A stretch of 27,714 bases of DNA, taken from the IMG/VR virus record IMGVR_UViG_2778261035_000014; one strand, given 5' to 3'. The notes under the pieces were generated by a model that saw only the letters and a list, made by a program, of their open reading frames with translations, made no database searches and was not told where the DNA came from. Positions 2,620 to 25,852 of this stretch are shown in pieces. Position 1 is the stretch's first letter; each line of letters opens with the position of its first letter. The stretch comes from a virus (lineage: Duplodnaviria; Heunggongvirae; Uroviricota; Caudoviricetes). Both the position numbers and the translations under genes were made by a program.

Positions 2620-2663
2620 AAATACAATATATCCAAACATCCATCCCGTGAATAGGTGTTGAA

Positions 2664-3150: not shown

Positions 3151-3263
3151 ATATATCTCCTTTCCTTTGCCTCCAGCACCGAAGGTGTCTCGCAATAGCG
3201 AGAGTGCTTCGCACCGTTAGCCTCGCCAGCAGCGGGGGCAATGCGCCCCCAAAATCCGCTGTC

Positions 3264-4280: not shown

Positions 4281-4298
4281 ATTGTTATCTCTCCTTGA

Positions 4299-4643: not shown

Positions 4644-4694
4644 ATTTTGTATCTCCATACAGTTTTTATAATCCGGCGAATATGCCGGGTTGAG

Positions 4695-4722
4695 TTGAAA
4701 AAATACCGTCCATCGGACGGCA
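4695..4722 (-). terminator. Intrinsic terminator or attenuator upstream of the capsid operon
   Basis: Stem ccgtcc/ggacgg (4706-4711 / 4715-4720), followed on the minus strand by TATTTTTT. A second hairpin ccggc/gccgg at 4673-4688 lies between it and the start codon. Confidence 0.4.
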
Positions 4723-4996
4723 TTCTTCTATTCGTGTTCCAACAGAAAAAGACCAAGGCGAGAATATCCCGCCCGGTGTAGGTCAGTAGTTTTCTGATGG
4801 AGAGATTTGGAAAGCATGAGTGTGTTCACGCTTCAGGAATAAGGAGGCGGCAACGCTCCAAAGAATGGGTAAGGAGACCCAAAAACGTTGCCACCTGATG
4901 CCGTTAGTGTCCGGCTGACAGCCTTCCGAGGATGAAAGGGCTTTGGCAAATCTCCGATCCAAGGTCGGAGAAAATTCTTCTACACCCGTTTACGGG

Positions 4997-5016
4997 TTAG
5001 CAACATATGTTGCTAA
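4997..5016. promoter_or_regulatory. Perfect 20-bp palindrome ttagcaacatatgttgctaa (candidate operator)
   Basis: Exact dyad symmetry, preceded by hairpin cccgtttacggg (4985-4996). Sits in the 650-nt ORF-free gap between the tape-measure-like gene and the capsid genes. Confidence 0.4.
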
Positions 5017-5313
5017 TCGCTCTACGATACTTTTCTAATACAGCCAGCGGCAATGGCCTAACCTTCCCGTGAGAGAGTGCGGATTATTGGCTGTATGAGA
5101 AAAGGCCCGCACGGTGTTCACACAGGCACTTTAAGTAAGGAGAAGGAATGACAACGGCTGTTGTACGCACATACAATTTAAATCATCACCCTATGCAATT
5201 ATTTTAACACGAATGATTATCATTTGCAACAACAAAAACAATAACATGGCGAATTTAACGGCCCTCTCTCGTGTGGGCCAATTTACTACGTCATTTTTGA
5301 CGGAACGATGATT

Positions 5314-7482
5314 TTAGTCCGCAATCCCAAGGATGAGGTTATTCTGCGCCTGGTTGTTTTCCCTTATCTTGGTATCAATCAGACCGTTAATCGCACCATC
5401 ATTAACATTCACCTCAAGAGGCGCAAACTTGATCTCAGCTTCGCCAGTGACCGCAACAGGAATCGGCTGTCGTTGAACTATGCTATCAATTGTCGGAACC
5501 GTGAACGTTGGTTGCTGGGGTGTCAGATAGTTCAGGCCAGGAACATTCAACGCTAGTGCTGGATCGTTATACGCCATGCCTGAGCCGATATTGCTCGGAG
5601 CGGAACTATCCAGCCACGGGTAAATCTGCTTAAGCGTCTGACCGATGCTACGTGGATCAAAGCCGGTCTTTTCCTTAATCCAATCGGCAGCACCATTTGA
5701 GGAGTCATCTACCACGCTCGTATAAACCGCATCCGGCAATGTTGCGCCTTTCTTGAGTTCTTCACCGACTCGACCAGCGAAGGAAAGAATGTTGGTGGTT
5801 AGCTCACCAAGAGCAACGCCGAGGGCATCGGAAATTGGGATCAGTCCAGTCATATTCTGACGTAGAGTGTCAGTATTGGCAGCGTACTGCCCCAGGCCTT
5901 CAACAAACGAGGCTGAGAAGTGATCCGCAAGACTTGTTTGTACTCGGTTGTACTCAGCACCCAAAGCTGCCAGCTTATCAAGGTTGGCCTGCTGTGCATC
6001 AGATAGGGTCCATCCTTCAGAAGCGAGTTGATGCATACGGGCAATAACTTCATCACCTTCCCCACTGATACCCGCCATCAAGACCGATCCGTCATTGATC
6101 GCTTCCAAAAAATGACGCATGGAATTCTCTGTCCAGCCGAATTGTTTACCCAACTGCCGCACATAGGTAACGAAGGTCCCCATGTCCAATTTCTGAAGCT
6201 CGCCAATCACTTTTTGTGCTGTTCGCTGGTTGGTTTTGCTAAGAACTGCATTCACCAGATCGGCAAGTTCACCACCTCCGCTGAATGTTGTTACCCCTTG
6301 CTTGTTAGTTTTAAAGGAACCGGTATTCAGTAGCTCACCTGCTTTCTCGAAGTAATCCTTATTCATGGACGCATACTTATCTACGGTCAGGTCGTACCCT
6401 GTACGCTTCTGTACAACGTCATGGATAGCATTAAATTCAAGCTGGCTAATATCATACTGCCTTAATTGCTGCGCCTCTCTGGAGCGTTCAAGACTCCCCT
6501 GGAGGGTCTGACCAACACGAGCAACTCCCATTGAACCAATCAGGGATCCCCCTGCAATTACACCAGTGGCAGCGAGGCCACCATAACCACGTTCGCTACG
6601 TTCACGTCTCAAACGTTGAGCATTAACGCGCCCTGCTCGCTCTACTTTAGCCCGATCCTTAACCATCTGGCGGTTAATACGTGCCTGCCGCCTGGTTTCC
6701 AGAGTCGCTTTAGCAAGTTCATGGCGCATTTCTGCGATGGTATAACGCTGCTCGGAGTATCCCTTGGTAGCCTCTTTGATTGCCTGCACCGCTTTCATTT
6801 TGTCAGCCAGGCTGGCACCTTCGATATGGCTGATCGTTAAACTGGCGCGGCGTAGGGTGTCGTATGCAGTGCTCTGGCGCTTGAGGCTGGCTTCTTTCTC
6901 ACGCTGGCGCTTCTCTTCCAGGGCCATCGCCTTTTTGGTGGCTGCGATGTCAGCAGCAACAGCGCCGTGACCACGGTTCATTGCGTCAGTCTGACGGGAA
7001 ACAAGACCAGGATCGTAATGTTGACCGCCCATGTTAGGGTTGTAGGTCATCGCTCGTGATCTGGCTGCGGCCTGCACTTTTGCGGATATATTGGCTAAAC
7101 GGGCGTTTTGTCTCCGGATCTGTTCACTATCTGCCAATTGTTGAGCCTGCCCTCTGGCGTTAAGAGCCTGCATTTTCCGGGCGTGAGCCTCTTCCTGTTT
7201 TGCGATCTTTGCCTGGGCTTGGGCCTGGCGTTGTTGCTCTAGCGAAAGCTTTTGAGCCATTTTGAGGCGCTGTGTTTGAGCGCGGGCTGCTTCAAGGGCT
7301 GCTTTACCCTCACTCTGGGCGGTTCGCTTCTGAGCTTGCTCCAGCGCTTTAGCAGGTTTGGTAGTTAATTGCTGAAGTGACAGAATTTTCTTCTTCGCTG
7401 CTTCGTAACTAGAGCGGGAAATTTCCCAGCTTACGATATTGACGGTGCTCGTCACTATCTTGTTGGTTGTTCCACTACTCAT
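5314..7482 (-). CDS. Long coiled-coil protein with a glycine-rich hydrophobic segment (tape-measure-like, function unresolved)
   Basis: About 722 aa from the ATG at 7482 (MSSGTTNK...), which overlaps the upstream stop in ATGAGTAG. N-terminus is Ala/Gln/Lys/Arg-rich and helical. Central segment GYGGLAATGVIAGGSLIGSMGVARVG. Analogous to 15469-17310. Confidence 0.6.
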   Translation of the reverse strand: MSSGTTNKIVTSTVNIVSWEISRSSYEAAKKKILSLQQLTTKPAKALEQAQKRTAQSEGKAALEAARAQTQRLKMAQKLSLEQQRQAQAQAKIAKQEEAHARKMQALNARGQAQQLADSEQIRRQNARLANISAKVQAAARSRAMTYNPNMGGQHYDPGLVSRQTDAMNRGHGAVAADIAATKKAMALEEKRQREKEASLKRQSTAYDTLRRASLTISHIEGASLADKMKAVQAIKEATKGYSEQRYTIAEMRHELAKATLETRRQARINRQMVKDRAKVERAGRVNAQRLRRERSERGYGGLAATGVIAGGSLIGSMGVARVGQTLQGSLERSREAQQLRQYDISQLEFNAIHDVVQKRTGYDLTVDKYASMNKDYFEKAGELLNTGSFKTNKQGVTTFSGGGELADLVNAVLSKTNQRTAQKVIGELQKLDMGTFVTYVRQLGKQFGWTENSMRHFLEAINDGSVLMAGISGEGDEVIARMHQLASEGWTLSDAQQANLDKLAALGAEYNRVQTSLADHFSASFVEGLGQYAANTDTLRQNMTGLIPISDALGVALGELTTNILSFAGRVGEELKKGATLPDAVYTSVVDDSSNGAADWIKEKTGFDPRSIGQTLKQIYPWLDSSAPSNIGSGMAYNDPALALNVPGLNYLTPQQPTFTVPTIDSIVQRQPIPVAVTGEAEIKFAPLEVNVNDGAINGLIDTKIRENNQAQNNLILGIAD

Positions 7483-7858
7483 TGCCCCCCCCCTGCTGCT
7501 TGATGATATTGCCGTAACGATCAGGATCAGATTTTGCGAGTGCAGCAGCCGCTGCTTTAGCTTTCGCCAGCATTTCAGGATCGATATGGTCAGCGGTATG
7601 TGAGACAACCGGACGGCTATCAGCACCCAACGATTTTTTAATCCGTTGTTCAGCACCAAAGGTGTCTCGCATTGGTGAGAGGGCTTCGCCCTTTTTACCC
7701 GTGGGTGTGTCAGCCGGGGCTGATTTGAGCAACTCCGGATGTTGATCCAGAAAGTTATCGGTGACGCTCTTCAGATTGTCCCGCGCTTTTTGAAGTTCGT
7801 ATTCCTCCGGTGTCATGCCATGCATGGCGGCGAAAATCCGGTCTTTTATTGTGGTCAT
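7475..7858 (-). CDS. Hypothetical protein (127 aa)
   Basis: ORF with a GGAGA Shine-Dalgarno, translationally coupled to the downstream long gene. Contains the MRDTFGAE segment whose DNA (7655-7695) is about 85% identical to 3175-3217. Confidence 0.45.
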   Translation of the reverse strand: MTTIKDRIFAAMHGMTPEEYELQKARDNLKSVTDNFLDQHPELLKSAPADTPTGKKGEALSPMRDTFGAEQRIKKSLGADSRPVVSHTADHIDPEMLAKAKAAAAALAKSDPDRYGNIIKQQGGGNE

Positions 7859-8029
7859 TTTTATAGTATCTCCAGAGAAGGATGCTCCCGCCGATCAGGA
7901 CGTGACGAAGCGCCACCCAGCCCCAAGGCAGGAAAAAGATGTAATCAAGGTTCATTGGCCCCCGATGTGGGGTTGGGTCAGTGCATCGCAAGGCGATTAA
8001 CAGCAATTGCTGTTAACCCTTTCAGGGTG

Positions 8030-8608
8030 TTAGTAGTGCAGGCGTGGTGAACGTCGCTGCGGGTTCTTCTGTTTTCTGGCGACTGTTTCACGATAGGCCA
8101 CAAACAACGGATCAGTATGATCCGGCATTCGAGATGCCATTTCTTTTTCAGTGATTCCTTCACGCTTAAGCAGCGTCACCACGGTGAATAGAGGCAGTTG
8201 AAGGTCAGCACAGATTTTTGCCAGCATTGCGCCGGATTCGTAGTACATTCGGGCCATTCGCTTAGTGGCATACTGACTGGTATTGCTTATCTTACGACAG
8301 CGAGGATTCCACGAGTTATCGTAAAGGCCTTTTACCAGGTCATACGGCAAGCGTAGGAGCAGCGCCGTTTTGCCTGGGGTGTAACCATGCACGAGCATTT
8401 TTTTAGCAGTCTCGATCAGCGAAGAATCACGAGAGCGGGATTTGTAAAAACGTGACAAATCGGGGGTTTCAGCACCGGAGGTGTTTACCTCTGGTAAACT
8501 GCTTCGCACCGTAAGGGATTCAGCCGTCAGGCCGTTGGCTGTCTGGCTGATGCCAGTTACTTTCTCACACAATATTCCTCCAGTATCAAAAAGGGATCTC
8601 AGGATCAT
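8030..8608 (-). CDS. Hypothetical HTH-containing protein (possible regulator or small-terminase-like); start uncertain
   Basis: ORF of up to 199 aa whose 5' end overlaps the rep-like gene. HTH-like segment GAMLAKICADLQLPLFTVVTLLKREGI. No family recognised with confidence. Confidence 0.35.
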   Translation of the reverse strand: MILRSLFDTGGILCEKVTGISQTANGLTAESLTVRSSLPEVNTSGAETPDLSRFYKSRSRDSSLIETAKKMLVHGYTPGKTALLLRLPYDLVKGLYDNSWNPRCRKISNTSQYATKRMARMYYESGAMLAKICADLQLPLFTVVTLLKREGITEKEMASRMPDHTDPLFVAYRETVARKQKNPQRRSPRLHY

Positions 8609-9389
8609 CTTCATCGTAGTGATATACATCCGGCCCGTTAACTTGTTGCTTTACTGGCGCTGGTTCTGTTGCGGGTATATCGTCAGGCCGCATCTGTTCT
8701 CCTGGCTCACCCATATTGGTTTTGCCTTTCAGTTTCCATACAAGTTTGATCTCATCCTGCCAGGTTGTAGCACCATGGGATTGCGCCCAGCGTCGCGCCT
8801 CTGGAACCAAATCCCCACGAGAGGTAAACGAGTTGGCGAGCCATGGTATCCCGACAACATTTTCCCCAGCTGACTCACTCAGTGATGGATCATCACTATT
8901 GGATAAATCAACATCGACAGGAATATCCACAGCAGGTACGCCGTCTGGTTTTCCAGTAACAGGCGCGGCAGATGCCACCACGAAAGATTCCACAACAGGT
9001 TTTTGCTCATTCTTACCGCTCTCCTCGGTTTCCACTTTTCTATTACTCGCCTGCGCGGAATTATGATCGTCAAGAAAAACCATCAGCGATGGATCGAGTT
9101 CGACCGGAGAAATTTTGTGTGTACTCCCCTTCACTTCCTCAAAAGTGATCATTCCAGCTTCACGAAGCTTGTTCCTGAAATTGCGAACGGCTTCGGGCTT
9201 GCAGCCGCAACGTTTACCAATCGTGCCAACAGATTCGTAATAAGTTCTGCCTGTTTTGTCATAGCTGTAAACCAGAGATAACAAAATTTTCATGTTGCCA
9301 TTAATGGTCAGGCCGTTGTACTCGGTAAGGTCGAGAACGCTGTATTCAAGTTTTACAAAATCCTTACTGTCCCGGTTCTGTTTGCTCAT
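8586..9389 (-). CDS. Replication-initiator-like protein with N-terminal winged-helix DNA-binding domain
   Basis: 267 aa with a GGAGA Shine-Dalgarno. N-terminal segment KILLSLVYSYDKTGRTYYESVGTIGKRCGCKPEAVRNFRNKLREAGMIT is typical of phage or plasmid replication initiators. Acidic Pro-rich C-terminus. Positional analogue of 21938-22603. Confidence 0.55.
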   Translation of the reverse strand: MSKQNRDSKDFVKLEYSVLDLTEYNGLTINGNMKILLSLVYSYDKTGRTYYESVGTIGKRCGCKPEAVRNFRNKLREAGMITFEEVKGSTHKISPVELDPSLMVFLDDHNSAQASNRKVETEESGKNEQKPVVESFVVASAAPVTGKPDGVPAVDIPVDVDLSNSDDPSLSESAGENVVGIPWLANSFTSRGDLVPEARRWAQSHGATTWQDEIKLVWKLKGKTNMGEPGEQMRPDDIPATEPAPVKQQVNGPDVYHYDEDDPEIPF

Positions 9390-9567
9390 TCTGTTCTCCG
9401 TAAAGTGTCGCCTTGCTGGCTAATGCTGGTTTGATGTCTGGTGTGTTGTCGAAAATGTTCGCGGCAGTCTCCAAGATTTCATTACAGAGCCGTGCCAGGG
9501 GCTTGTCCTGCCTTTTGGCCTCAGCCAGTAGAGCCTGATAAACGTGCTGTTGAAATTTGATGTTCAT
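9364..9567 (-). CDS. Ribbon-helix-helix (CopG/Arc-like) DNA-binding protein
   Basis: 67 aa. MNIKFQQHVYQALLAEAKRQDKPLARLCNEILE is clearly homologous to the element-2 small ORF MNINFDSATYNALLNRAKAEGKSIPKLVNELLI. Overlaps the rep-like gene start. Confidence 0.55.
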   Translation of the reverse strand: MNIKFQQHVYQALLAEAKRQDKPLARLCNEILETAANIFDNTPDIKPALASKATLYGEQNEQTEPGQ

Positions 9568-9655
9568 TCAAGTTGTCCTCCTCGTTCTAGGTACAAAAGA
9601 CCTCCCGCCAGTGGTCGCCCAGAAGGCGAACCGGCTCAGGTTTTGTTCAGTGTTG

Positions 9656-10102
9656 TTAGGCTGCGGTTGCTGTCGGGAATTCGCCAGCCAGTGGATAACC
9701 GTAGGCTTCAAGTTCTTCTGCACCGCTGACAGCCACAAGCAGCATAATGATCTGCTCATGAGTCAGAGAAAGACCTAGCTTATCCAGATAAAGCTGTCGA
9801 TGGCCTTCCAGGATTGGACGAAGTATATCGGTCAACTCCATTCCAGCAGCGCGTTGATTACTCAGCGGCTTAAGGATGGTTTTAAACGCTCGCGCCTGCT
9901 TCGCCTTTTTGCGCTCCTGCTTCAGAATATGCAGGCAGACGGCAATCTGAGGAAGTCGGGCATGTACAGCGTCTGCCCCGCCGTTTCTACTAATGAAGGC
10001 CCACAAGGCTGATTTGGTGTATTTGCCGTTCAGGATGAGATCAGCGATCTGCTCGCCTGTCATAGTGGTCAGGTCGAGACGTTGGGATTTTGGTTTATTC
10101 AT
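9656..10102 (-). CDS. Hypothetical protein (148 aa), first gene of the leftward operon
   Basis: ORF with a GGAGA Shine-Dalgarno; no family recognised. Confidence 0.5.
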   Translation of the reverse strand: MNKPKSQRLDLTTMTGEQIADLILNGKYTKSALWAFISRNGGADAVHARLPQIAVCLHILKQERKKAKQARAFKTILKPLSNQRAAGMELTDILRPILEGHRQLYLDKLGLSLTHEQIIMLLVAVSGAEELEAYGYPLAGEFPTATAA

Positions 10103-10850
10103 TGGGTTCTCCGTTCTGTTAAAAGAATTATTCGCGGAGGTTCTATTTGTAACCCATTTTGTATTGCCGTGAGGTTGACAAGGAATGTCGTGATGACGGC
10201 AGAATTATTCGAGGATTCATAGGTAAATCATTACCCTACTAGAATCTATTGTATCAGATTTGTCTGTAAATAGCAATCATTATCATGTAGGATTTTATAA
10301 TGCATAATAATCACCATAACACTACAAGTTTACAAAATCTTTGTCAATAGTGCCAAGCCGTTCTATAACGCGTTCTGCGGGTACTTGTCACCATAGGAGT
10401 ACATACGTATCACCACCACCGTTTAAACGCCATAGAGAGGCTTTAAGGAGGTCTGTTAGTTAACCCGCGCCGCCCCGGAGTGAACCGGACAGATGCAAAG
10501 CAGTCCTCTACGCCGTGCTCCGCTCCACATATGGCGAACAAGTTCGCAGCTTCCACACAGAGTAAGAGCGTAGCTCTATGGCGTAGCCTGCCGGGTTACC
10601 CGAGTCACAGAGCGGAGCGATGTGTTAACGAGGGTTAGAAGGTCACGAGATGGCGTGGCTGTTTCACGTCAGCGAAGGTGAGCTTCTTACCACAAACATA
10701 TCTGAAGTGGCTGACCAGCCATTGCAGAGCGGAGCGATGCAGAAGCATCACTATTAAAACTAACAGAATGACCAACCGTCATTCCGTGCTCTCGACCTGG
10801 AGGTACTTTTCTTATCAGTTCTTTTATGGGGATTGTTATTTATTATTATT

Positions 10851-10932
10851 GTGCTCGAAAATCGACTACCCCCTACTCGAAAATCGTGCAGGTAGGTGCT
10901 CGAAAATCGAGGGGGTGGGTACACGAAAATCA
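10851..10932. repeat. Iteron-like array: four ~23-bp direct repeats with core CTCGAAAATCG
   Basis: gtgctcgaaaatcg (10851), tactcgaaaatcg (10875), gtgctcgaaaatcg (10896), acacgaaaatca (10921). Spacing is 22-24 bp, about two helical turns. The spacers ctaccccct and agggggtgg are complementary. Confidence 0.55.
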
Positions 10933-12213
10933 TGCAGGTATCACCGGGTGAGAATTTTCCAAGTCATCCACGCGACCAACGCACCGATGAAAACTTCCGG
11001 TTTGATATGTCCGCGTCATGCTTCAATGGCACAATCAACGGCAACACCTGAGGCGGTCCAAACACCTGATCCGCTCCGAGAATTGATCATCTCCCTCCCC
11101 TGCTTTCATCTGAAAGTACCGACCATTCTCCGCGCTGGCTGAAGATTGGCAACCCTATACTGATTTTCTGTCAAAATTTGGTGGATGATCTTTACCATTG
11201 GCTATCTTGTAAACAAAATAGATTAAATGCACCTCAAATAGCCCATAATCCGTAGTTAATCATGCTAAAGTGGTCACTATGCGTACAAATCAGAAGTCTG
11301 AACCTATGGGCGTTATGGTGTGATGTACATAACGAAGCCTTGCCAGCACTGGAAGCGTGAAATTTGGTGGCTGGTATCTGGATCAAGCAACACTCAATTT
11401 CTGAACCTTCGCTTCAAAAAAATAATAAAACAACACACAAAACCAAAACAGATGCCCTCTGGTGGCTGCTGTATCGCGCTGTGGGATGCTGTGGATTATC
11501 GGTATGTCAGTTCACGTTTGTGTAGAGATAACGCCGCTACGGGTTTCTGGTTGAGCGTAGGAGGGATTGGTGGGTTGGCTGTTTACATTGTTGTGGGAAA
11601 TGGTACGAAACAGTGGCGGCCTGGCTCGGTGAATATCACCAGGTGATGGCAGACCTTCAGCCCGTTGTGGTAACGTCGCCGTAGTAGCCCTATGTCTGCT
11701 GCGAATAGAAAAATGTGCTTTTATGGCATTTGATGCACTGTAAACTTCAAAGGCCTGAAACCTGAAATTGTGTGGTGACCAGCCAAACTCATCCAAAATC
11801 CTTGAACAAGAGAACTCACCTCAAATCCTCCTGAATGCTTTCCTTCTGTTGGTGAAATCGCTGTTGTGTACCACGCTTCGCATCAACGCTCCGAAAAGCA
11901 ATACCTGACTATTCCAGTCAAGTACATGTAAGATACAATATGTTAAATGGCTGTACAATTAGTGAACACAGGCACTTCAAAACATCAAGTTATCTCCCTT
12001 GCCTCAGCCCAAAGCAGCATTGTGTAACTGCACTGCTTGTTGCAGTGAGGCGTGTCGCTGAAGGCATCACGTAGCGATATTTGGCGAAGAAAAGCGCTTT
12101 TCACCGAGGGCCTGGGCTGACGGTCTAGCAGATCACCAACAGAGCTGGGGATATTTTCAACAGGAGAATGTAAACTTGGAAGATAAAGAGCCGGGACACT
12201 TACGGGGCAGGTT

Positions 12214-12429
12214 GTGGAAATGAAGAAAATTTTACTATTTGTTGTGGTACTGCTGCCGCTGGCGGCTCATGCAGGAAAAATCACCATAAGCAACCCCGAC
12301 GAACAAGAATTACAGGGCGGGAAAAGGCTTTGCACTTACGAAAACAGCATTTATCTGTTTACGCTGGTGACTCGCTCGCAATCCTGCCCTTTCTCAAAAA
12401 CGTTCGATACAAATGATAATGAAAAGTGA
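12214..12429 (+). CDS. Small secreted protein with two conserved Cys (paralog of 25846-26061)
   Basis: About 70 aa with signal peptide MKKILLFVVVLLPLAAHA. Conserved blocks GKITISNPDEQ, LCTYENS.YLFT, CPFSKTFDT are shared with the element-2 paralog. Confidence 0.6.
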   Translation: MEMKKILLFVVVLLPLAAHAGKITISNPDEQELQGGKRLCTYENSIYLFTLVTRSQSCPFSKTFDTNDNEK

Positions 12430-12442
12430 AACGGAATGTCTG

Positions 12443-12931
12443 CTAATGGGGTGCTTTGCCGATCATCTCCTTAAGATCTTTGAAGCGTTCTTTGATTATT
12501 CTTCCATTCTCGGCTAAACGATTCGCTTCAAACGCAGTGAATTGAGCAATATTTTCTATTTCTTCGCGGCTGATGCTCATAAAATTCTCATCAAGCTTAG
12601 AGAGCATATTTGTGACACCTTGTCTACTTTGTGTAAAGAAACCAAGGTTATCTCTGACACCCTTAAGAAGTTCTTTCTTACCATAAGGGTTCATATTTGT
12701 ACTCGTTTCTATAGACTTGATAAGCTCTTCCGTGTCACTACATATTCCACGGTAAACCAGTTCGACCTCACGAAGCTCTTTCACTGTATCAATTTTCATT
12801 TTCCTTAATGAATCATGCTCAGCATTTTTTCTTGATCGATAGGTGTTATACAGAGCAGTTATACTGACAACAAGTGCAATGAAAGAGAATAGAGCGCTAA
12901 AAAAAGGCAGCAATTCTTTTGACATTTTCAC
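12443..12931 (-). CDS. Membrane-anchored coiled-coil protein (cargo, unknown function)
   Basis: 162 aa with a GGAG Shine-Dalgarno. N-terminal TM helix LLPFFSALFSFIALVVSITALY, then a charged helical domain. Low GC. Confidence 0.6.
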   Translation of the reverse strand: MKMSKELLPFFSALFSFIALVVSITALYNTYRSRKNAEHDSLRKMKIDTVKELREVELVYRGICSDTEELIKSIETSTNMNPYGKKELLKGVRDNLGFFTQSRQGVTNMLSKLDENFMSISREEIENIAQFTAFEANRLAENGRIIKERFKDLKEMIGKAPH

Positions 12932-12953
12932 TCCAAATTTATTAGTCTAGAAG

Positions 12954-13652
12954 TTAACTTCTAAATTTTTGAAAACAACGTCGATCAATCTCTTGTGCCA
13001 ATCTAGTCCGCATCTCTCCATAGCTTAATCTTTCCATATCTGAGGCTATTTTCCAACCACAACCTTTGAAATTACATTTAATAATAGGAAATGGGACATA
13101 GTTATAGAGATCAACGCTGGAGTGTTGGCTAAGAAGGCCTCCACATTTAGGGCATCTCATGTGAAGATTTATTAAAGAGTACCCACTATCACCTAATGCT
13201 TTAGTCCATTCCCAAGAAACTATCATTTCATAAATATTATCCGAAGTATAATGCAAAAAACTGCCCTCTTGTCCTGTAGCTTTCGCTGCAATACGACGGC
13301 GCATTACAAATCCAACAGTAGGTAAAATTGCCAATAATAAAATCGATAAAATGAGGAGCATCCATAAGGGCATTGTGACTGGGAAGGTAAGGATGTCCAT
13401 TAACCAATGGAAGAACTGCTTAATGTAATTCCATAGCCACACAACGACGGCGATCCCACTTCCTCCAGTGACAAGTGCAACGATAACGCCCGATATGCTG
13501 TCTTTGCTAAGGTCTTTCAACCATGCCATAGAAATTCTTCTTATTAAGCTATTCTTTATGCTCAATTTTACAGCGAACCAGATTTTAGGCAATAGGAGCC
13601 ATAAAGCGCCGTGATGGGTACATCCATCGATCAGCGCCTTCAGGCGTGTCAT
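12954..13652 (-). CDS. Membrane protein with C-terminal 4-Cys zinc ribbon (cargo, unknown function)
   Basis: Up to 232 aa; the start may instead be the internal ATG at 13529. Two or three hydrophobic helices, then CPKC-(x25)-CNFKGC. Sits 22 nt upstream of the 162-aa gene, so probably an operon. Confidence 0.55.
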   Translation of the reverse strand: MTRLKALIDGCTHHGALWLLLPKIWFAVKLSIKNSLIRRISMAWLKDLSKDSISGVIVALVTGGSGIAVVVWLWNYIKQFFHWLMDILTFPVTMPLWMLLILSILLLAILPTVGFVMRRRIAAKATGQEGSFLHYTSDNIYEMIVSWEWTKALGDSGYSLINLHMRCPKCGGLLSQHSSVDLYNYVPFPIIKCNFKGCGWKIASDMERLSYGEMRTRLAQEIDRRCFQKFRS

Positions 13653-13977
13653 CAGATTTTCAGCGGTAACGATCAGTGAGTCAGGTGTGCATTTTCGTAT
13701 ACACGAAACGGGGTAGAGCCTGCCGCTTTCCCGGACAGGTTAGTAATCCCATCATATCGCCTGTTTATCCCGCGCTAAGGTCGTCGTAAGCGCCGCTGTT
13801 TCAGGAATGGTTTATAGCCATAGTGAAAGGCTTTGTTTTCTTGTTGGACTATCGCGGTAAGACACTGGAACGACCGCCAGCGTTTTGATAAGCTTCCTGA
13901 TCACTACTCACCAAATCGCGGTAGTTACCAAGGTAGAACGTCGAGAGGGTTCTCAACAGCGCTTACAGAGCGCCTCC

Positions 13978-14064
13978 CTCTAAGCACCGGAAACATAAAG
14001 ATTTTTTAGCTGATTTTAAGCGTAAAAAATCGCTGGAGCGGGCGAAGGGAATCGAGGAAACCCA
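13978..14064. repeat. Inter-element att junction: 16-bp motif (13978-13993) and 22-bp core (14043-14064)
   Basis: Same two motifs as at 786-832 but in the opposite order and with 49 nt between them. Confidence 0.6.
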
Positions 14065-14140: not shown

Positions 14141-15361
14141 GTGTCGATCAAGAGCCAAGCATACTTATTTAAAAGAAAAGATGGGATCTGGATGTTTCAG
14201 ATTTTTGTTCCTAAATACTTACGTCATCTTTACCCTTATAAGTTGTGGAGAAAAAGCACATCTACACGAGATCTGAATGAGGCGAGAAGATTCAGAAACC
14301 ATCTATTATTAGAATGGGAGGAACTAAAGCGAAAACATAATCCTGATAACCCCGAAAGGAGGTTACAAAAAGCTATTGAATCCTTACATTCAGAGGCAAG
14401 GGCCAATAAAAACACGCAAAGAGCCGTAAAACGCGGTTATGCACCGCCTTCCCTGTGCCTAATACGTGACGAATACGCCGAATGCTACAGAGAGCGTCGT
14501 TCATACTCAACACTACAGAAATCAGCAAGGGCCGTTGAGCTATTTTTACAAAGCATTCAGAAAGATGATATTCATATTGAGAAAATAGGCAGACGGCTTG
14601 TAACAGTATTCTTAGATGACCAGAAGCAACGAGGAGCAGCCGATCAATCTCGTCAAAACTGGCTTACATGCTTAGGATCGCTCTATGAATTTGCTAAACG
14701 CCGTTATGACGGAATACCAGACAATAACCCTTTTCACGGTCATAACCTCGAAGCACGTCGCACAATCGAGAGTTATCAACCGTTTACACCTGAACAAATG
14801 CAAAAGCTACTTGATGCAGCGGAGCCGGAGATCAGAAATATTATTTTAATGGGCTTGTTTTCAGGATGCAGATTAGACGAACTGGCAAGCCTGAAAAAGT
14901 CAGAGGTTGTAACTGTGGAAGGAATACGCTGTTTTTATATCAGCAAGAGTAAGACTAAAGCAGGGATCAGACACGTTCCGATACATTCGAGACTATCGAT
15001 TATTGTCGATGAATATTTAAATCATAATTATGGTGAATATTTGTTCCCTCACTCGAACAAAGTAAAAAGAATCGACGGCAAGAAAGGCCCGTTCTATTCT
15101 CAAGCATTCTCACGTTTACGTCGTAACGTCTTGCCAATCGCTACAGATAGACAATGCTTTCACAGCTTGCGCGGGATGTTTATCACTTGTCTTGATCGTG
15201 CCGGAGTGCCTGAACAGCGGATCGGAGCCATTACCGGACATACAGAGCAGAGAGCTAAAACAGAAGCCTTTCGCACCTACTCACAAGGGGCAAGCATTCC
15301 AGAATTAGCTGAATATGTAGAATTAGTAAAATATGAATTAAATATTGATTTTAAGGCGTAA
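14141..15361 (+). CDS. int: Tyrosine-type site-specific integrase (second, diverged copy)
   Basis: 406 aa with a GTG start and AGAGGA Shine-Dalgarno. Same catalytic motifs (SGCRLDE, HSLRGMF, GHTEQ...RTYS). N-terminus differs from integrase 1. Confidence 0.9.
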   Translation: MSIKSQAYLFKRKDGIWMFQIFVPKYLRHLYPYKLWRKSTSTRDLNEARRFRNHLLLEWEELKRKHNPDNPERRLQKAIESLHSEARANKNTQRAVKRGYAPPSLCLIRDEYAECYRERRSYSTLQKSARAVELFLQSIQKDDIHIEKIGRRLVTVFLDDQKQRGAADQSRQNWLTCLGSLYEFAKRRYDGIPDNNPFHGHNLEARRTIESYQPFTPEQMQKLLDAAEPEIRNIILMGLFSGCRLDELASLKKSEVVTVEGIRCFYISKSKTKAGIRHVPIHSRLSIIVDEYLNHNYGEYLFPHSNKVKRIDGKKGPFYSQAFSRLRRNVLPIATDRQCFHSLRGMFITCLDRAGVPEQRIGAITGHTEQRAKTEAFRTYSQGASIPELAEYVELVKYELNIDFKA

Positions 15362-17664: not shown

Positions 17665-18693
17665 TTACGCTACTGTGATCTGTACAGTGAAGCCTACGCC
17701 GTGGTTTACAACCATCTGGCTATTCTCGGTAACTACGTTTACAGCGTCGTTACGTGCTGGGCTAAATGCATAGCTGTAATATTCAGCCGATCCAGAGTTC
17801 AGAAGGTCGAACGTTGAAGAAGGAGCGCCGAAAATGTTCTGATAGACGTTAGAGCCTTTAGCGAACTTCGGAACAGCCACCGCATCAGAAGTCATATGAG
17901 CCAGCAGCAGCGGATCGGTAACTTTGATCAGATCAATGTTAGTGCCTGGAATAGTGAAGGTAGTCACACCTGGCAGCAGGGAGCGCACACTATAAACGAT
18001 GTTTGCGTCATCGGTAGGGCTTGCATACTGGAACGCGTTAACCATGCCAGCACTGTAACGGATAGCGTTAAATGCAGCAGGTTTACAGAATACAACGATA
18101 CGCTCTACAGCAGCCGCCTGGCTTTGTGCTTTAGTAATAACGTCTGTATGCATCTGATCGAATTGCTGGAACACCATAGAAGGCGTGGTGCTTGATGCGT
18201 CGATGGTTGCAGTCAGCGGAACAGCACTAAACAGATCGCCCCACTGAATCAGCACATCGTCAGTTTTAGGGGTGTAGGTGCGACCACTAAACAGGGAAGC
18301 AGCCAGTACGCTTTCTTTAGTACGCTGGAAAGCAATGTGGTGCTTAGCAACATATTCCGCGTAGATATCTGTCAGAGTCTCTTCAACGGTAGCGCCTGGT
18401 TTACGTTTGCCTTGAACGTCTTGCGGCTTAATCATATCTTCACGCAGGAAGTAGGGGATCTCTACTAAAAATTCTTTACCCTGTTCACGTTTAGTCACGT
18501 TATGTTCAGAAGAGAAACGAGAGGTTTCTTTGTTGAACAGAGATTCGTTAGTTTCCACCAGTTGGCTAACAGCCACTTTATGAGAACTCACACCTACCGG
18601 ATCAGTGAAGTCCAGAGTAGTTAACAGGAAGTTGCGAGAGTCGTGCAGACTAAACAGCGGAGCCAGATCGACGGATTCATTACCAATAATCAT
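17665..18693 (-). CDS. Major capsid protein, lambda gpE-like (second copy)
   Basis: 342 aa with an AAGGA Shine-Dalgarno. Paralogous to the 3264-4280 product and preceded by the small partner gene. Confidence 0.7.
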   Translation of the reverse strand: MIIGNESVDLAPLFSLHDSRNFLLTTLDFTDPVGVSSHKVAVSQLVETNESLFNKETSRFSSEHNVTKREQGKEFLVEIPYFLREDMIKPQDVQGKRKPGATVEETLTDIYAEYVAKHHIAFQRTKESVLAASLFSGRTYTPKTDDVLIQWGDLFSAVPLTATIDASSTTPSMVFQQFDQMHTDVITKAQSQAAAVERIVVFCKPAAFNAIRYSAGMVNAFQYASPTDDANIVYSVRSLLPGVTTFTIPGTNIDLIKVTDPLLLAHMTSDAVAVPKFAKGSNVYQNIFGAPSSTFDLLNSGSAEYYSYAFSPARNDAVNVVTENSQMVVNHGVGFTVQITVA

Positions 18694-19301: not shown

Positions 19302-19330
19302 TGTTGCTTTACCTTTTCTAACATTCTTGT

Positions 19331-19361
19331 TTAGTGCTGATAAAATAAAACCGGAAGGGGA
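19331..19361 (-). terminator. Intrinsic terminator upstream of the capsid operon
   Basis: 7-bp stem ccggaag/cttccgg (19341-19347 / 19355-19361), followed on the minus strand by TTTTATTTTA. Confidence 0.55.
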
Positions 19362-20175
19362 AAACTTCCGGCTTTATGAATACAACATTTTGAAGGATGC
19401 GATAGAAGTGTTACTAAATCGTAGTTATATGCACTTAAAGAGGATAGGACATATAAGAATAAGATTGCTTATTGTTATATACCCTTGAGGGGTGAATAAC
19501 AGGCTTACAGGGAGTAGGCGCTTAGGAGGTCGCCCCCTTTGGAGAGGAATCTATAAACCTGTTATTCGTGCGATGGCTAATCGCTGTCGTCACAATGTGG
19601 ATGCATCGATCAGACGTTCAGGAATCACCTATTAACTTTCAAACCTTTTTGGATTCTCGTTTTAATAGGAGTGGTGCCGAGATGATTTCGGGGATCATCC
19701 ACGCTTTCGCGTTCTAAGATTGGCACCTTAATAAACACCAACAAACAAAAAACGTATTCAGCTTTAGGCTTAGTAGAATTGCTGTTAAGAAACAGATATA
19801 CACCGTTATTTGTTTATACGGGGTTTATAGACACTGTAAACAGTGTTTTTAGAAAGTGTTTCATGCTTCACAGTTGGTTAAAAAGATGAGGGGCCAAGTC
19901 CATAGCCCCTGCATTCTTAAGACACAATTTTGATAAAGCAATAAGGAAAATAAAATGAAACTATTAACGAGGGAAACAATTTCTAAAAATCACTGTAAAG
20001 GGAAAGCGAGGTAGGTTAGATAGGGCGCGACCCCTTGAGGTCTACCCCGCTTTCGTGTAGGATTAAAATCTGGAGAAGGATTAACGCCAGCTAACACCTG
20101 TTTTAGATTATTTCCTCTACATTTCTTATTATATAACATTTCTGTTATAAAGTCAATAGTTAAATCAAAGTTTTT

Positions 20176-21937: not shown

Positions 21938-22603
21938 TTAAAATGGTATTGAGTCATAGATTTCACTTTCTTTTCTCAGGGCTATCATCAGTGCATTAAA
22001 AGCATCATCTTCAAGAATTATCCTCTTCGAGGTCAGTGCACGTTTTATAAAATTTTCTGTTTCTTCTTGCATAGGCTTTTGGCTGTCTATGGAAATAAGC
22101 CATGTAAAAAGATCAGATTGTTCCGTGATTTCTGCCTGTGTTTCCTGCTCAATAGAGTGTGTCGCTTCTAACGGTTCCTGTGTTTCAGGTGCAGGCTGTT
22201 CTACGTTTACAGAGGTTTTTACGTCTTCCGGTGGTGTGATGTGTGCATCTGTAAATGGTAATGCTTTATAGAGTGATGTTTGCCCGTCCCGTGCCTCTAC
22301 AGAAAGAACACCCATATCAATAAACATATTTATAATATTACGCACCTGACGATCACTAACCATTCCAATATTAGCTAATGTTTTTTGATTGGCGTAACAT
22401 TCTTGCCCTTGTTCATTGAACCCAGCTACGTAACTGTAGATTTCAACGGCTGGAAGTGTCGCGGTGTATTCCTTACCTGACGGTGAGAACCACTTTTTAA
22501 ACATCTTCAGCCATTGTTCAACTACTACATATGTTTGTTTACTATCTTTCTTATTGAGGCATTGCGCTTTTGCTTCGGCAATTGTTTTGGTGTTTTGGTT
22601 CAT
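21938..22603 (-). CDS. Replication-initiator-like or winged-helix DNA-binding protein
   Basis: 221 aa. Segment ECYANQKTLANIGMVSDRQVRNIINMFIDMGVLSV. Acidic C-terminal half. AAGGAGG Shine-Dalgarno lies inside the upstream ribbon-helix-helix ORF. Confidence 0.5.
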   Translation of the reverse strand: MNQNTKTIAEAKAQCLNKKDSKQTYVVVEQWLKMFKKWFSPSGKEYTATLPAVEIYSYVAGFNEQGQECYANQKTLANIGMVSDRQVRNIINMFIDMGVLSVEARDGQTSLYKALPFTDAHITPPEDVKTSVNVEQPAPETQEPLEATHSIEQETQAEITEQSDLFTWLISIDSQKPMQEETENFIKRALTSKRIILEDDAFNALMIALRKESEIYDSIPF

Positions 22604-22727
22604 TTAGTTCCTCCTTTGTAAGGACTGTAATTAGTAATTCATTAACAAGTTTTGGAATTGATTTCCCTTCTGCCTTTGCACGATTTAACAACGCGTTATA
22701 AGTTGCAGAATCAAAATTAATATTCAT
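22551..22727 (-). CDS. Ribbon-helix-helix DNA-binding protein (58 aa, absent from the ORF track)
   Basis: Hand-translated: MNINFDSATYNALLNRAKAEGKSIPKLVNELLITVLTKEELNEPKHQNNCRSKSAMPQ. GGAGAA Shine-Dalgarno. Homologous to the 9364-9567 product. Overlaps the rep-like start in another frame. Confidence 0.5.
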   Translation of the reverse strand: MNINFDSATYNALLNRAKAEGKSIPKLVNELLITVLTKEELNEPKHQNNCRSKSAMPQ

Positions 22728-22750
22728 TTGGTTTTCTCCTTCTCCTGTTA

Positions 22751-22933
22751 TTATTCTTTCTCTGCTTCTGCCTTACGCAGTTCATCAATAATTTTTAGTG
22801 CATCGTCAAAGCATTTTTCACGCTCTGGATAACCACAGCGCCGCGCTGTGTTCCTGTTCATCCTTACTTGATGTCGTGTTAGCTCACCTTTTTTAAATGC
22901 CTCTACGACGTGTTCCGGTGTATACCATTTCAT
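22751..22933 (-). CDS. Small basic protein (60 aa), first gene of the leftward operon
   Basis: ATG at 22933 with AAGGAG Shine-Dalgarno 7 nt upstream (MKWYTPEHVVEAFKK...). Confidence 0.5.
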   Translation of the reverse strand: MKWYTPEHVVEAFKKGELTRHQVRMNRNTARRCGYPEREKCFDDALKIIDELRKAEAEKE

Positions 22934-23917
22934 AAAAAACTCCTTATTTAGATAAAAGAAAAACACACCTTGCAGCCTGACGGCTCAAAGTGCAGTGTTC
23001 TGTGATTTGATTATTTAGATGGAGAGAGATGTTTCTCCCCTCCCTACTTACAATACTACATAACGGCGGCTTTGTCAACCCTCTTTTATAAAAAATTTGA
23101 TCATTTTCAATTTCTTATAATTTTTCTTAGCTTTTTGTGCTGCCTACTCTGGTACAATTCTTCCCTGTTGCCTAAAACGCTCTCAATCGCACTCTGACGG
23201 GGTTTTGATAAAAACAATACATTCCCTTATGTAGAGGTTGTTTATCTCGTCAGAGGCTTATTTAAGGGGCTTATTTTTGATTTATCAGATGATGGAAAGA
23301 TGGTGGATAGATAAATTCTGATTTCAGACATCTTATAAAATACCTGCAAAGTTCTCAGAAGCTCTGTAACGAGCTAATCTATTACCGCTAAGGTGTTTCC
23401 CTTACATTACCCTGTTTAGCTCGCCTACGGCTTGATTTAAGCGGTAGAATCTTATTTAACCTTCAACTACAAAAACCATTCTTTCTTTTTTGTTGTTGGT
23501 TGTTTTGTCATGTTATGCGTTAGCATCCCCAAAGGGTAACGCGACACTAACAACCATTCGCTTACGCTCAGGTTATTGCACAAGTAAATTTCAATCGTTA
23601 GATGGTAGTTAGTTAATTATCGTTCTGCGCACAGCGCAAGACTATTAGCCATACGCAAGCCGTAGGCTATTTGCACATAGTAGATTACATATTCGTTGTG
23701 AGCGGAAAGCGAACATAGATCAGCTAACTACTAACAAAAAACAAAAAACAAAAACTATCTGTTATGACAAGCATCAGTCTAACTTGTGCAAGGTTCTGGC
23801 GAATGCCAATAGATTAAGGGATAGTCGAAGACTCCCTAACGGGTATCCCTATAATTATTCTTTAAAAGATAAAAGAATTTATAAAAGATAGTTTAATTGT
23901 AGTTTAATTATAGTATT

Positions 23918-23969
23918 GTAGGAACTCATTTCCTGGGTAGGTAGGAACTCATTTCCTGGGTAGGTAGGG
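23918..23969. repeat. Tandem direct repeat, 2.3 copies of 23-bp unit gtaggaactcatttcctgggtag
   Basis: Exact copies at 23918-23940 and 23941-23963, then a partial copy; preceded by duplicated agtttaatt. Confidence 0.7.
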
Positions 23970-25092
23970 AAACCGCACTATACACTGGTAAGTGTCTTGC
24001 ACAGAAAAAGGTATCAAAAATGTCTAAAGCCCCTTTAGATAAAAATGATACCTTTATACATGCGCTAATAGCGCGCATAACAATAACCTACTAACAACTA
24101 ACTAACTAAAAAGTAAGAAGATGTTGTTATGATTAGTGTATCGCTCAACGCTCACATCTATCTCTGATCTATAAATTGGTAACTGTCTAACAACAACAAA
24201 CAACTATTACATGCAAAACAGCCTTACGGCTGCATAGAGATGATTGGCTAACCTTCGGTTGCTACGCATAGCCATATCTATGAGAAGATAAAAGAGATTT
24301 AAAGGTTAGTTTGTTGTTGATCTAACCAACATTCGCTATACGCTCATACAATCTACATTACACATTAACTATCAAACTACAATCTAACGATATATAGAAT
24401 CTATATCCACTCATTATCATTCGTGCAATGATCACATTGATAGTTCGCTATACGCTCACCTCAATTATGTGCAATGGCTTTTCAGGCAACGCGTTAGCGT
24501 ATTCTTGCGAATGCCTGATCTCCAAAGCCGGAATTAAACAGCAAGAATATCTCGTGTAAATCGTAGAATATTCATAGTTTATTCCGTGTAATTCCATACT
24601 AAAAAATGCAATGAAAAGTAGCTTCAAAGTGCAATTCTTACTTTCTTCACTTTTACATTATCATCAGCAAAGCCTTATGTAATGCGGCATATAGCGTATC
24701 ACTGCAAAATTGTTGCTCAATAAATGTTCTACCATTTGTTGAACGAATGTTCACTCGTGCACATCTCAAAGAGAATAATCATTTGTCATACAATTCCATA
24801 ATAAGAATTATTATCACTTATAATGCAATACAACCCAGATTCGATACACTTTAGCAAAGTGTATTCTGTAACTTACTGATCTTTATATACTCAGGCATAT
24901 ATAGACCATTTATCGCTATTTATTGGCTATTTTTCATCTGCCGAAAATAAATTTCTTGACAAGACAAATCATTTGTGAACAACTTGCATAAAATAAATTT
25001 ACTTATAAATCAACAAGATATTTCATATTTGTGCCTGCATCAGATCGGGAGGCTTGATCTTTGTGTTCAACGATGGTGACGGACGCACCTAA

Positions 25093-25172
25093 ATTAAATC
25101 GGTTTTAATCGCCTTTAATACCTTTTAATCAGTCTTAATCACCTTTTAATAGCCCTTTAATCACTTTTGATC
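25093..25172. repeat. About eight phased ~10-bp repeats with core TTTAATC
   Basis: ggttttaatc / gcctttaata / ccttttaatc / agtcttaatc / accttttaat / agccctttaatc / acttttgatc. About 10-bp periodicity, ending 100 nt upstream of the recombinase start. Confidence 0.6.
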
Positions 25173-25273
25173 ATTTAGTGCTCTCAACCATAAAACGTAT
25201 CGTGCAACATATTGAAAATGATCGTTTTATGATCAAAACTACTTTCATTGAAACGAATAAGGAGAGTATAAAG

Positions 25274-25852
25274 ATGAAAGGTATTAGCCAAGCCCTCAAG
25301 AATGTAGACGAGGTAAAAACAGTAGCAGCAGAGCTACAGCGCAATAGTAAAACCAACCTGTTTTATTGCTTATGGGTGTTTATGTATGAAAGCGGGTTGC
25401 GTGTCTCTGACGTACTCAAGCTAAAATATCAGGATGTTGAGGGGCAATCTCATTTGAAGATAAAGCAGGAGAAAACCGGAAACGTAGTAAGGCCAAAAGT
25501 TACCCCCGCCATGTTGTCAGTGGTGGCACAACGCAAGGCAGAGCAAACGAAGATGCCTGTAGCTACAGATTTTATTTTCAGTGCTGGCACATTACGCAGT
25601 AAAGGCGAAGCCGTAACCCGTAACACGGTATTCACTGAATTTGGGAAAATGGGACGTAGAGCCGGATTCTCTAATGTGGGATGCCATACGCCACGTAAAA
25701 GTCGGGGCCGTGTGATGTTTGATGCAGGGGTAGCTATAGAGACAATAGCCCATTTCCTGGGACAGACAGATCCGCGCTCTACTATGTATTACATCGGGTA
25801 TGGTCAGGATGTGCAGGACGATTTAGCAGAGGAGTTTTCTTTAGAATGGTGA
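25274..25852 (+). CDS. Small tyrosine recombinase, FimB/FimE-like (catalytic domain only, 192 aa)
   Basis: AAGGAG Shine-Dalgarno 9 nt upstream. Motifs ESGLRVSDV (Arg), HTPRKSRG (His-x-x-Arg), and C-terminal LGQTDPRSTMYY (Tyr). Size and motif spacing resemble my recollection of FimB. Stop overlaps the next start in ATGGTGA. Confidence 0.65.
   Translation: MKGISQALKNVDEVKTVAAELQRNSKTNLFYCLWVFMYESGLRVSDVLKLKYQDVEGQSHLKIKQEKTGNVVRPKVTPAMLSVVAQRKAEQTKMPVATDFIFSAGTLRSKGEAVTRNTVFTEFGKMGRRAGFSNVGCHTPRKSRGRVMFDAGVAIETIAHFLGQTDPRSTMYYIGYGQDVQDDLAEEFSLEW

Follow-up and report, generated by a model that had tools for sequence, protein, structure and literature searches.

The IMG/VR virus record IMGVR_UViG_2778261035_000014, a stretch of 27,714 nucleotides that is called the window here, raises the question of what a 2.2-kb noncoding stretch is doing between an operon that runs leftward, with every gene from 22933 to 15469 on the minus strand, and the gene of a small tyrosine recombinase. 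A sequence-only reading had described this region as AT-rich and devoid of open reading frames (ORFs) of 60 aa or more, and both descriptions are correct: no such ORF lies in 22967-25170, the adjacent ones ending at 22966 and starting at 25171/25178, and the GC content is 0.316-0.382 over 23001-25000 compared with ~0.44-0.52 in most of the window. That reading had gone on to suggest either an origin and regulatory hub or an array of small RNAs or peptides. Comparison with related loci leads us to conclude that the region probably serves in cis as the replication origin, and as the region of transcriptional control, of an integrative, phage-satellite-like Escherichia island of ~13.6 kb. The first suggestion is thus borne out for the core of the region, where iterons lie beside an AT-rich segment, the type of iteron tracks the N-terminal type of the initiator across 31 loci, and a promoter and leader are found at the left end.

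The 31 loci comprise the window, 19 others drawn from E. coli genomes and from species representatives, and 11 loci from IMG/VR. They have a common layout, in which Block A is followed by a variable left arm, AT-rich short repeats, dyad-symmetric iterons of 22-24 bp, a right arm, and Block B. Blocks A and B are conserved in all 31 loci, whereas the 776-1589 nt that separate them are variable. Since the species-representative genomes contributed four loci alone, all in fact Escherichia-type, the power of any covariation analysis is limited to the diversity of E. coli.

The 23-bp tandem repeat noticed in the sequence-only reading lies at the center of this layout. It occupies 23918-23968 with 2.2 copies of GTAGGAACTCATTTCCTGGGTAG at 100% match (score 102 in Tandem Repeats Finder, TRF), has the dyad GGAA-CTCAT-TTCC, and represents the type we call T1, the presumed binding sites of an initiator with the N-terminal domain N1. 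Directly to its left is an AT-rich region (23849-23917) in which 11-nt repeats, ATAGTTTAATT, are present in 2.5 copies at 23888-23914 (TRF); loci of the beta lineage have a 13-mer, TTAATTATAGTAT, three times in the same place, and AT-rich short-period repeats stand directly left of the 22-24 bp tandem repeats in nearly all of 20 loci. From this arrangement, 23849-23917 is the probable DNA unwinding element.

The candidate initiator is Rep, a protein of 221 aa encoded in the leftward operon (21938-22603, minus strand), whose only Pfam match is HTH_36 (E = 1e-4) and whose PHROG matches are to lambda-O-like replication-initiation and DnaD-like families. Across the family, Rep proteins range from 186 to 244 aa and have a modular build in which any of five unrelated N-terminal types may be combined with either of two C-terminal types; the window Rep is of type N1. 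There are likewise five types of iteron, each with a dyad-symmetric core: T1 GGAACTCATTTCC, T2 AACAGAATTCTGTT, T3 TAGCTCACAGTGACCTA, T4 TATCAGACTTGATA and T5 TGTAAC-N5-CGTTAC. The two sets co-vary in sequence, five with five, in 28 of 28 typed loci. All 26 loci with an N1, N2, N3 or N5 Rep contain the cognate iteron array, as the most abundant array and the one nearest the AT-rich region, and the N4 Rep pairs with T4 iterons. The pairing recurs in the alpha and beta lineages and is independent of the C-terminal type of Rep. Furthermore, among beta islands that are 93-98% identical, homology is lost in two stretches only, the Rep N-domain and the iterons. Because five iteron types match five Rep N-types, and because homology is lost in both places together, we identify the 23-bp repeat as an origin iteron array; as judged from this co-variation, the paired swap is the signature of an initiator and an origin that are exchanged as a functional pair.

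In some loci (L004 at 3690-4100, L018 and L025), different iteron arrays, two to four in number, follow one another in tandem (T3, T1, T2, T3, T5 is one such order), and the cognate array is the one nearest the AT-rich region. Such mixed arrays may be composite origins that answer to several Rep types, or relics of past swaps.

The attributes of an iteron-type origin are found together here: tandem repeats of ~17-24 bp at helical-phase spacing, an adjoining AT-rich region with short repeats, and, in silico, an initiator with a repeat-specific DNA-binding domain. Neither a DnaA box (TTATNCACA, at most one mismatch) nor an IHF consensus (WATCAANNNNTTR) is conserved near the origin in 10 loci, and this fits a lambda-type rather than a plasmid-type origin. 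To the right of the iterons is a palindrome that had been overlooked, with 23-nt arms between an A-run and a T-run (24007-24055); its DNA fold of -11.2 kcal/mol (z = -6.69) is equaled by 0 of 200 shuffled sequences. It is possibly a bidirectional terminator that insulates the origin, or an origin-associated dyad.

The C-terminus of Rep provides a second point of interest. In all variants it reads ...IYDS(I/L)PF or ...YEDFDIPF, and in the window ...IYDSIPF. The C-terminal tail of the E. coli single-stranded DNA-binding protein (SSB), DFDDDIPF, recruits PriA, DnaG, the chi subunit and others, and by analogy the end of Rep may be an SSB-tail mimic that recruits the host replisome.

Transcriptional control is assigned to the left end of the region. 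Block A (22934-23313), conserved in all family members as judged by BLAST of 19 loci against the window and by alignment, holds a promoter and leader together with repeated units, TAAAACGC and GTTTAGCTCGCC...GGCTTATTTAAG. The predicted sigma-70-type promoter of the leftward operon (23050-23078, minus strand) consists of TTGACA, a 17-nt spacer and TATTGT, with A/T-rich sequence upstream; a promoter scan gives 10 of 12 matches, and the -35 element (TGTCAA on the plus strand) is invariant in 20 loci. In the operon leader (22952-23045, minus strand), a conserved A/U-rich linker joins a 5' hairpin (23040-23021) to a 12-bp hairpin (22993-22965), after which UGUUUUUCUUUUAU stands directly upstream of the ribosome-binding site of a gene for a 60-aa protein. 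The segment 22934-23045 folds on the minus strand with -31.4 kcal/mol (z = -3.05), and RNAalifold analysis of 10 distinct leaders retains both hairpins, the 5' one through compensatory changes and the terminator with a conserved stem and a variable loop. Pairs 62-95 and 66-91 of the terminator stem are G.U/U.G and valid on the minus strand only. A GC-containing hairpin with a U-run, placed between a promoter and the first gene, has the form of a terminator or attenuator, and the leader element may accordingly act in intrinsic termination or attenuation, or else form the 3' end of a ~90-nt small RNA (sRNA). From the promoter and the conserved hairpin-UGUUUUUCUUUUAU before the 60-aa gene, we infer that an intrinsic terminator precedes the long operon; either its read-through would be regulated, or an RNA of ~90 nt would be made.

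Outward of the origin core, the sequence is less uniform. The left arm of the window, of the alpha lineage type (23314-23848), is a mosaic of short hairpin modules and motifs, including a GCGC-ACA-GCGC hairpin (23627-23637) and a T/G-rich run (23483-23505). Alignment shows these modules to be duplicated or deleted between close relatives through recombination between repeated units. The hairpins fold with modest z-scores of -2.5 to -2.9, and some show compensatory variants, such as GCGTTA/TAACGC and GTGCTA/TAGCAC. Alpha and beta left arms have only short islands in common, GCGCACAGCGCAA and TTCGNTGTGAGCGG, and the core of the latter, TGAGCG, occurs once in each of 20 loci searched.

To the right of the iterons, the window has a lineage-specific insert of 579 nt (23975-24553) that is shared only with L019-type loci. 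This insert was found in 76 of 5426 genomes, at 78 places, all chromosomal. A mobile miniature inverted-repeat transposable element (MITE) was considered and rejected, as the insert is in a single place in all but at most two of these genomes. Several insert segments are inverted copies of left-arm segments (find-repeats pairs I3, I16, I17, I20 and I21), and the two parts have 23 8-mers in common in inverted and 16 in direct orientation compared with 8.3 after shuffling, a modest mirror signal.

The insert also contains most of what had been described as a motif, TTCGCT(A/T) and its continuation, occurring four times. The recurrence is real and non-random (TTCGCTWTACGCTCA has three matches at two or fewer mismatches, against 0.05 expected, and 0 of 100 shuffles reach three), but only two copies, at 24332-24346 and 24444-24458, fit the pattern exactly. 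The copy placed near 23563 is a 14-nt variant one base short (TTCGCTTACGCTCA, 23557-23570), the one near 24137 has three differences (aTCGCTcaACGCTCA, 24140-24154), and a fifth copy, TGAGCGGAAAGCGAA, with one mismatch and inverted in the left arm (23699-23713), had been missed. With three copies in the 579-nt insert, the motif is not family-wide; direct copies are absent from most family members. The insert further holds small hairpins and a CAACAA run (24189-24203), and the other CAACAA or TTGTTG runs that had been noted are likewise present (23483-23505 and 24310-24318). The ggttag/ctaacc stem (24304-24309 / 24322-24327) exists, but its stability is at the level of chance (-3.4 kcal/mol, z = -0.97, equaled by 35 of 200 shuffles).

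A different short motif, YGTGYAAW, shows a more consistent pattern. Seven of its 12 matches in the window fall within the 2.2-kb region (8% of the window), among them those at 23575-23582 and 23670-23677 on the minus strand of the left arm, and at 24422, 24468, 24553 and 24585 (24422-24592) on the plus strand of the right side, where a variant, TATGTAAT, lies at ~24675. Counted in distinct contexts over 20 loci, there are 53 sites to the right on the plus strand, 19 to the left on the minus strand, three to the right on the minus strand and none to the left on the plus strand, so that 72 of 75 point outward from the origin. The outward strands are lagging-strand templates of departing forks and sense strands of outward transcription alike. 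We rejected several identities for this motif. Its core misfits the consensus of Tus/Ter (GTTGTAAC) and of the DnaA box (TTATNCACA), and no consensus boxes, including those for IHF, are found; a promoter scan gives no sigma-70 promoter at the sites, and candidate -35 elements stand at no conserved distance from them.

Nothing in the right arm is better conserved than Block B (24554-24770), which BLAST and an alignment of 20 loci show to be present in all family members. Within it lie three YGTGYAAW-type repeats together with four AAAGTR half-sites, of which two are direct and two inverted, at roughly helical spacing. The possibility that it is a structured RNA was rejected, as no consensus fold was obtained on either strand (-3.8 and -7.2 kcal/mol over 230 columns), and we read Block B, from its conserved half-sites and repeats, as protein-binding DNA. 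The polar motif arrays, Block B and the hairpin-rich arms are the parts of the region that could hold something new.

We considered whether the arms might instead encode one or more structured noncoding RNAs, transcribed outward or read through from Block A, that control replication or immunity as do the P4 CI RNA or ColE1 RNAI/RNAII, with the TTCGCT..CGCTCA copies as pairing partners. The many short hairpins with stable loops, their compensatory variants and z-scores of -2.5 to -2.9, the strand polarity of motifs on both sides of the origin, and a motif that occurs in four direct copies and an inverted one, able to form two 6-bp helices, are consistent with such a model, as are the sRNA-like build of the leader (hairpin, A/U linker, terminator) and the lack of a protein repressor gene divergent from the operon. 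Other results make it unlikely. A search of the whole window with Rfam 15 at the gathering threshold gave no matches, and a permissive one (E up to 10) over 22600-25400 gave chance-level matches of eukaryotic snoRNA type alone, with E of at least 1.8. Sliding-window z-scores are mostly between -2 and +1 and are modest outside a few hairpins, Block B lacks a consensus structure, close relatives differ by duplications or deletions of hairpin modules, most of the family has no direct motif copies, and the promoter scan finds no promoter-like site inside the arms. We therefore regard the array of small RNAs envisaged in the sequence-only reading as unlikely, and the minus-strand leader and terminator, of ~90 nt, is the sole RNA element with good support.

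The constancy of Block B is open to another explanation, namely that together with the polar YGTGYAAW arrays it forms a pac- or cos-type packaging signal for the terminase of a helper phage, which would explain why swaps of the replication module leave it unchanged. Block B and the motif are indeed conserved in 31 of 31 loci whatever the type of Rep, iteron or recombinase, and the island has capsid-related genes and no terminase. In P1 pac and SPP1 pacL/pacR, short repeats flank a central point, and the repeats on either side of the center here resemble those layouts. We nonetheless regard a packaging signal as rather improbable, for the mirror center coincides with the origin and not with a distinct cleavage site. 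BLAST against 50,697 phage genomes found no similarity to the whole noncoding region, and for Block B (E up to 10) chance matches alone, with E of at least 3, although short repeat signals would escape BLAST. The IMG/VR matches are uninformative on packaged particle ends, because their isolate-genome-style identifiers and long contigs point to prophage calls from isolate genomes.

The right end of the region has a separate association. The segment 24771-25273 (plus strand) is specific to the tyrosine-recombinase variant of the island, being confined to 49 genomes with that enzyme. A promoter and terminator scan gives promoter-like sites at 24750-24811 and a terminator-like hairpin at 25042-25060, and a phased TTTAATC array with a period of 10-11 bp (TRF periods 10 and 21), another feature missing from the sequence-only reading, lies at 25103-25173. 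We suggest that the segment is probably the promoter of the recombinase together with a recombination or accessory site. The enzyme itself (25274-25852, plus strand) is a catalytic domain only, of 192 aa (Pfam Phage_integrase, 8e-16), with weak full-length matches, far below the cut-off, to Xer and FimB/FimE-type invertase models. Other family members have at this position a small serine recombinase with different upstream repeats (L002 at 4237-4788, L004 at 4686-5225), unrelated hypothetical genes, or no recombinase; the presence of tyrosine or serine enzymes at one position is an analogous replacement of recombinase families. A perfect 9-bp dyad with an operator-like look, ATACACTTT-AGC-AAAGTGTAT (24843-24863), also lies between Block B and the recombinase gene, and a perfect 13-nt inverted repeat, GATCATTTTCAAT / ATTGAAAATGATC (23099-23111 / 25211-25223), brackets almost the whole noncoding region.

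These features invite the view that the region as a whole is the substrate of the adjacent recombinase, as an invertible switch or a multimer-resolution site with the inverted repeats as crossover sites. A small tyrosine or serine recombinase, when present, is always at the right end, the phased array is just upstream of its gene, and the weak FimB/FimE-type matches and the perfect 13-nt repeat are what such a view would draw upon. Yet no inverted form is seen among the 18 full-length matches listed (98-99.8% identity), all of which are in one piece and co-linear; members without the tyrosine recombinase still conserve the left copy of the repeat; in several members the position holds no recombinase at all; and tyrosine and serine enzymes cannot share sites, whereas the arms and Block B are common to both. 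This makes a recombination substrate a poor candidate for the function of the region.

That the region encodes several unannotated small proteins, the peptide array of the sequence-only reading, is scarcely credible, for although there are many ORFs of 30-59 aa on both strands, among them a hydrophobic 41-aa ORF at 23072-23197 and, in one genome, a PGAP-called 58-aa ORF inside an arm, three-base periodicity of variable sites is absent from Blocks A and B and from the beta left arm (p = 0.25-0.99, compared with 8e-31 for the capsid gene and 0.007 for the 60-aa gene as positive controls), no small ORF stays open with good identity across lineages, and a 70-aa ORF of the beta Block B shrinks to 13 aa in the window.

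Returning to the origin and control region, we propose the following working model. The strong sigma-70 promoter (23078-23050) would fire leftward into the ~90-nt leader with its terminator (22993-22952), and expression of the operon, including the 60-aa protein, a ribbon-helix-helix (RHH) protein, Rep and the capsid genes, would be gated by terminator read-through. The N-terminal winged-HTH domain of Rep would bind the dyad iterons at 23918-23968 with which it co-varies, probably as dimers, and then melt the AT-rich repeats at 23849-23917, whereupon its SSB-tail-like C-terminus (...DIPF) could recruit the host replisome, as the tail of SSB does. The outward-pointing motifs of the arms (YGTGYAAW, the CGCTCA core, CTAAC and CA-rich runs) would most likely offer sites of binding or priming to a conserved factor from the island, the host or a helper, although we are uncertain of this function, and Block B would be a conserved protein-binding element. 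The last ~500 nt would belong to the small recombinase, probably as its promoter and a site for resolving replicated multimers.

A bolder version of this model, which we put forward tentatively and think unlikely, makes the mirror-image arms an undescribed origin accessory system, in which these strand-specific motifs and small hairpins, carried by both lagging-strand templates or, equivalently, by the outward transcripts, recruit priming or primosome proteins or a helper factor and act with an SSB-tail-mimic Rep, replication and expression being licensed only on phage infection through leader read-through. How the host replisome is recruited by so small an initiator may be approached through two leads, the arrays of outward motifs and the SSB-tail-like end of Rep.

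Several considerations weigh against assigning the region to an origin and its control. The whole case is built on comparative sequence analysis, and it is from gene content only that the island is taken to be a satellite. In contrast to classical iteron plasmids, the loci have no DnaA box or IHF consensus conserved near the iterons, and the window has 2.2 iteron copies compared with 3-6 in its relatives. The origin core accounts for ~120 nt, which leaves about 1.1 kb of arms and Block B without a demonstrated role. Moreover, since arm modules are gained and lost among close relatives, much of the arm sequence may be dispensable. The identity of the arms within the beta lineage equals that of the flanking genes; the selection test is thus uninformative, and selection on the arms is not proven.

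The island to which this region belongs adjoins a tRNA-Gly gene and is bounded by a tyrosine integrase (window 14141-15361), as defined in strain CE0026a, and the window is up to 99.8% identical to E. coli chromosomes. Its leftward operon begins with the 60-aa protein gene (22751-22933), which is annotated as a coding sequence in every related locus. The protein is a confident three-helix bundle by AlphaFold (pLDDT 84.6), without an informative Foldseek match (best E = 1.9), and its 44 homologue clusters are all from Escherichia; on its candidacy as the binder of the motifs, this fold gives evidence neither way. The rest of the operon, all on the minus strand and named here from Pfam and PHROG matches, includes an RHH-like ORF of 58 aa, Rep, small unknown proteins followed by a 123-aa protein, a capsid-E-like protein (17665-18693), and a 613-aa protein that matches a family labelled tape measure. 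The capsid-E-like protein has a full-length match, at ~25% identity, to major head proteins of rV5-like/phapecoctavirus myoviruses, which gives the island its phage-satellite-like look; the hosts of these phages are E. coli, Klebsiella and Pseudomonas, and rV5-like myoviruses are a lead towards a helper phage. PADLOC found no match among the island cargo genes, no AlpA or Stl-type regulator was found among the island proteins, and a tRNA/tmRNA scan gave no match. A second gap of ~875 nt with no ORF of at least 60 aa (19302-20175, GC 0.34-0.39) separates the head genes from the small upstream genes.

Relatives of the noncoding region are present in 742 of 5426 complete E. coli genomes (~1 in 7), including O26 and other pathogenic lineages, and family members in these genomes have an unannotated gap of 1.4-2.8 kb at the same position. 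For nearly all of the matches listed, the annotation has nothing under the region, with an occasional insertion sequence (IS) transposase or hypothetical protein. The matches are chromosomal in 891 of 892 places, and BLAST against plasmids gave two E. coli records alone, one of which is really a chromosome. The family appears to be confined to Escherichia. Two contigs labelled as Bacillota metagenome-assembled genomes (L007 and L008) carry an Escherichia-type island with 73-77% protein identity, and their label is probably a binning or contamination artefact. In several genomes (L015 at 1022-1996, L018 at 997-2159, H2 and H41), the Rep gene or the region is broken by IS elements (ISApl1, IS3 and IS481) or has given way to them, and some island copies are therefore decaying. 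Upstream of the island's integrase, positions 1-14000 of the window hold another integrase gene, of 404 aa (901-2115), and an ORF of 781 aa (5314-7659), whereas in CE0026a the flanks of the island consist of a glycoside hydrolase gene and pseudogenes of ETT2 type III secretion; the window thus seems to contain two tandem islands. We found no paper that describes this island family, which is common and yet annotated as hypothetical throughout; with origin, promoter and leader terminator located, experiments on it have a direct starting point.

How does this replicon compare with those already described? Its core is, on the comparative evidence, an iteron-type, lambda-O-like origin with a promoter and leader, in a common uncharacterised island. 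The iteron plasmids pSC101, P1, F and R6K likewise have tandem 22-24 bp repeats at about two helical turns, AT-rich 11-13-mers and a cis-encoded initiator. They differ from the island in the DnaA boxes and IHF consensus that its origin does not conserve, in that its Rep is not of the plasmid Rep_3/RepA family, and in its chromosomal integration.

Among satellites, SaPI and PICI islands have iterons around an AT-rich region and a specificity match between Rep and origin, as does the present island, and the PICI origin is directly downstream of a primase-helicase rep gene. In contrast, the island Rep has no helicase or primase domain, its origin is upstream of the operon in a 2.2-kb noncoding tract, and no regulator of the AlpA or Stl type is seen. 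The satellite phage P4 relies on transcription-termination immunity, with a leader that contains the CI RNA. The island resembles it in having a constitutive-looking promoter and then a terminator leader upstream of a replication operon, with no protein repressor gene nearby; this is a resemblance only, without sequence similarity or any sign of RNA processing or of seqA/B/C-type pairing.

The likeness to lambda is closer. The island Rep matches O-like and DnaD-like PHROG families, and dyad-symmetric iterons stand beside an AT-rich region without DnaA boxes. In lambdoid phages, the N-terminal domain of the initiator carries origin specificity and differs between relatives, and the same division is seen in Rep. 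Whereas the lambda origin is inside the O gene, that of the island is in noncoding DNA, ~1.3 kb away from the start codon of rep; the island has no gene for a P-like helicase loader, and its Rep, of 186-244 aa, has an SSB-tail-like end.

The closest working analogue is provided by the PLE satellites of Vibrio cholerae. To our knowledge, nothing described in PLE corresponds to the polar YGTGYAAW arrays or to Block B. In PLE, a large noncoding region contains the origin, and the iterons of that origin co-vary with the N-terminal domain of RepA as an exchangeable module, as was shown experimentally (PMC8263062; Barth et al. 2020 as cited there). In both cases a satellite-type island has a large noncoding region that holds the origin (in PLE) or the predicted origin (here), the iterons are semi-palindromic and bound (in PLE) or predicted to be bound (here) by the initiator N-domain, and N-domain and iterons are swapped as a pair between similar islands that share the C-terminal part. 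The differences are that the island Rep has no RepA_N domain (a weak HTH_36 match in Pfam, O-like in PHROG), that the host is Escherichia and there is no DNA similarity, and that there are five specificity types, with two to four tandem iteron arrays in several loci. By analogy, then, the island works like a PLE replicon and yet is not a member of that group. The exchange of Rep N-domain and iterons parallels the PLE exchange that has been linked to escape from an origin-targeting phage nuclease, and it may mark a similar arms race in E. coli.

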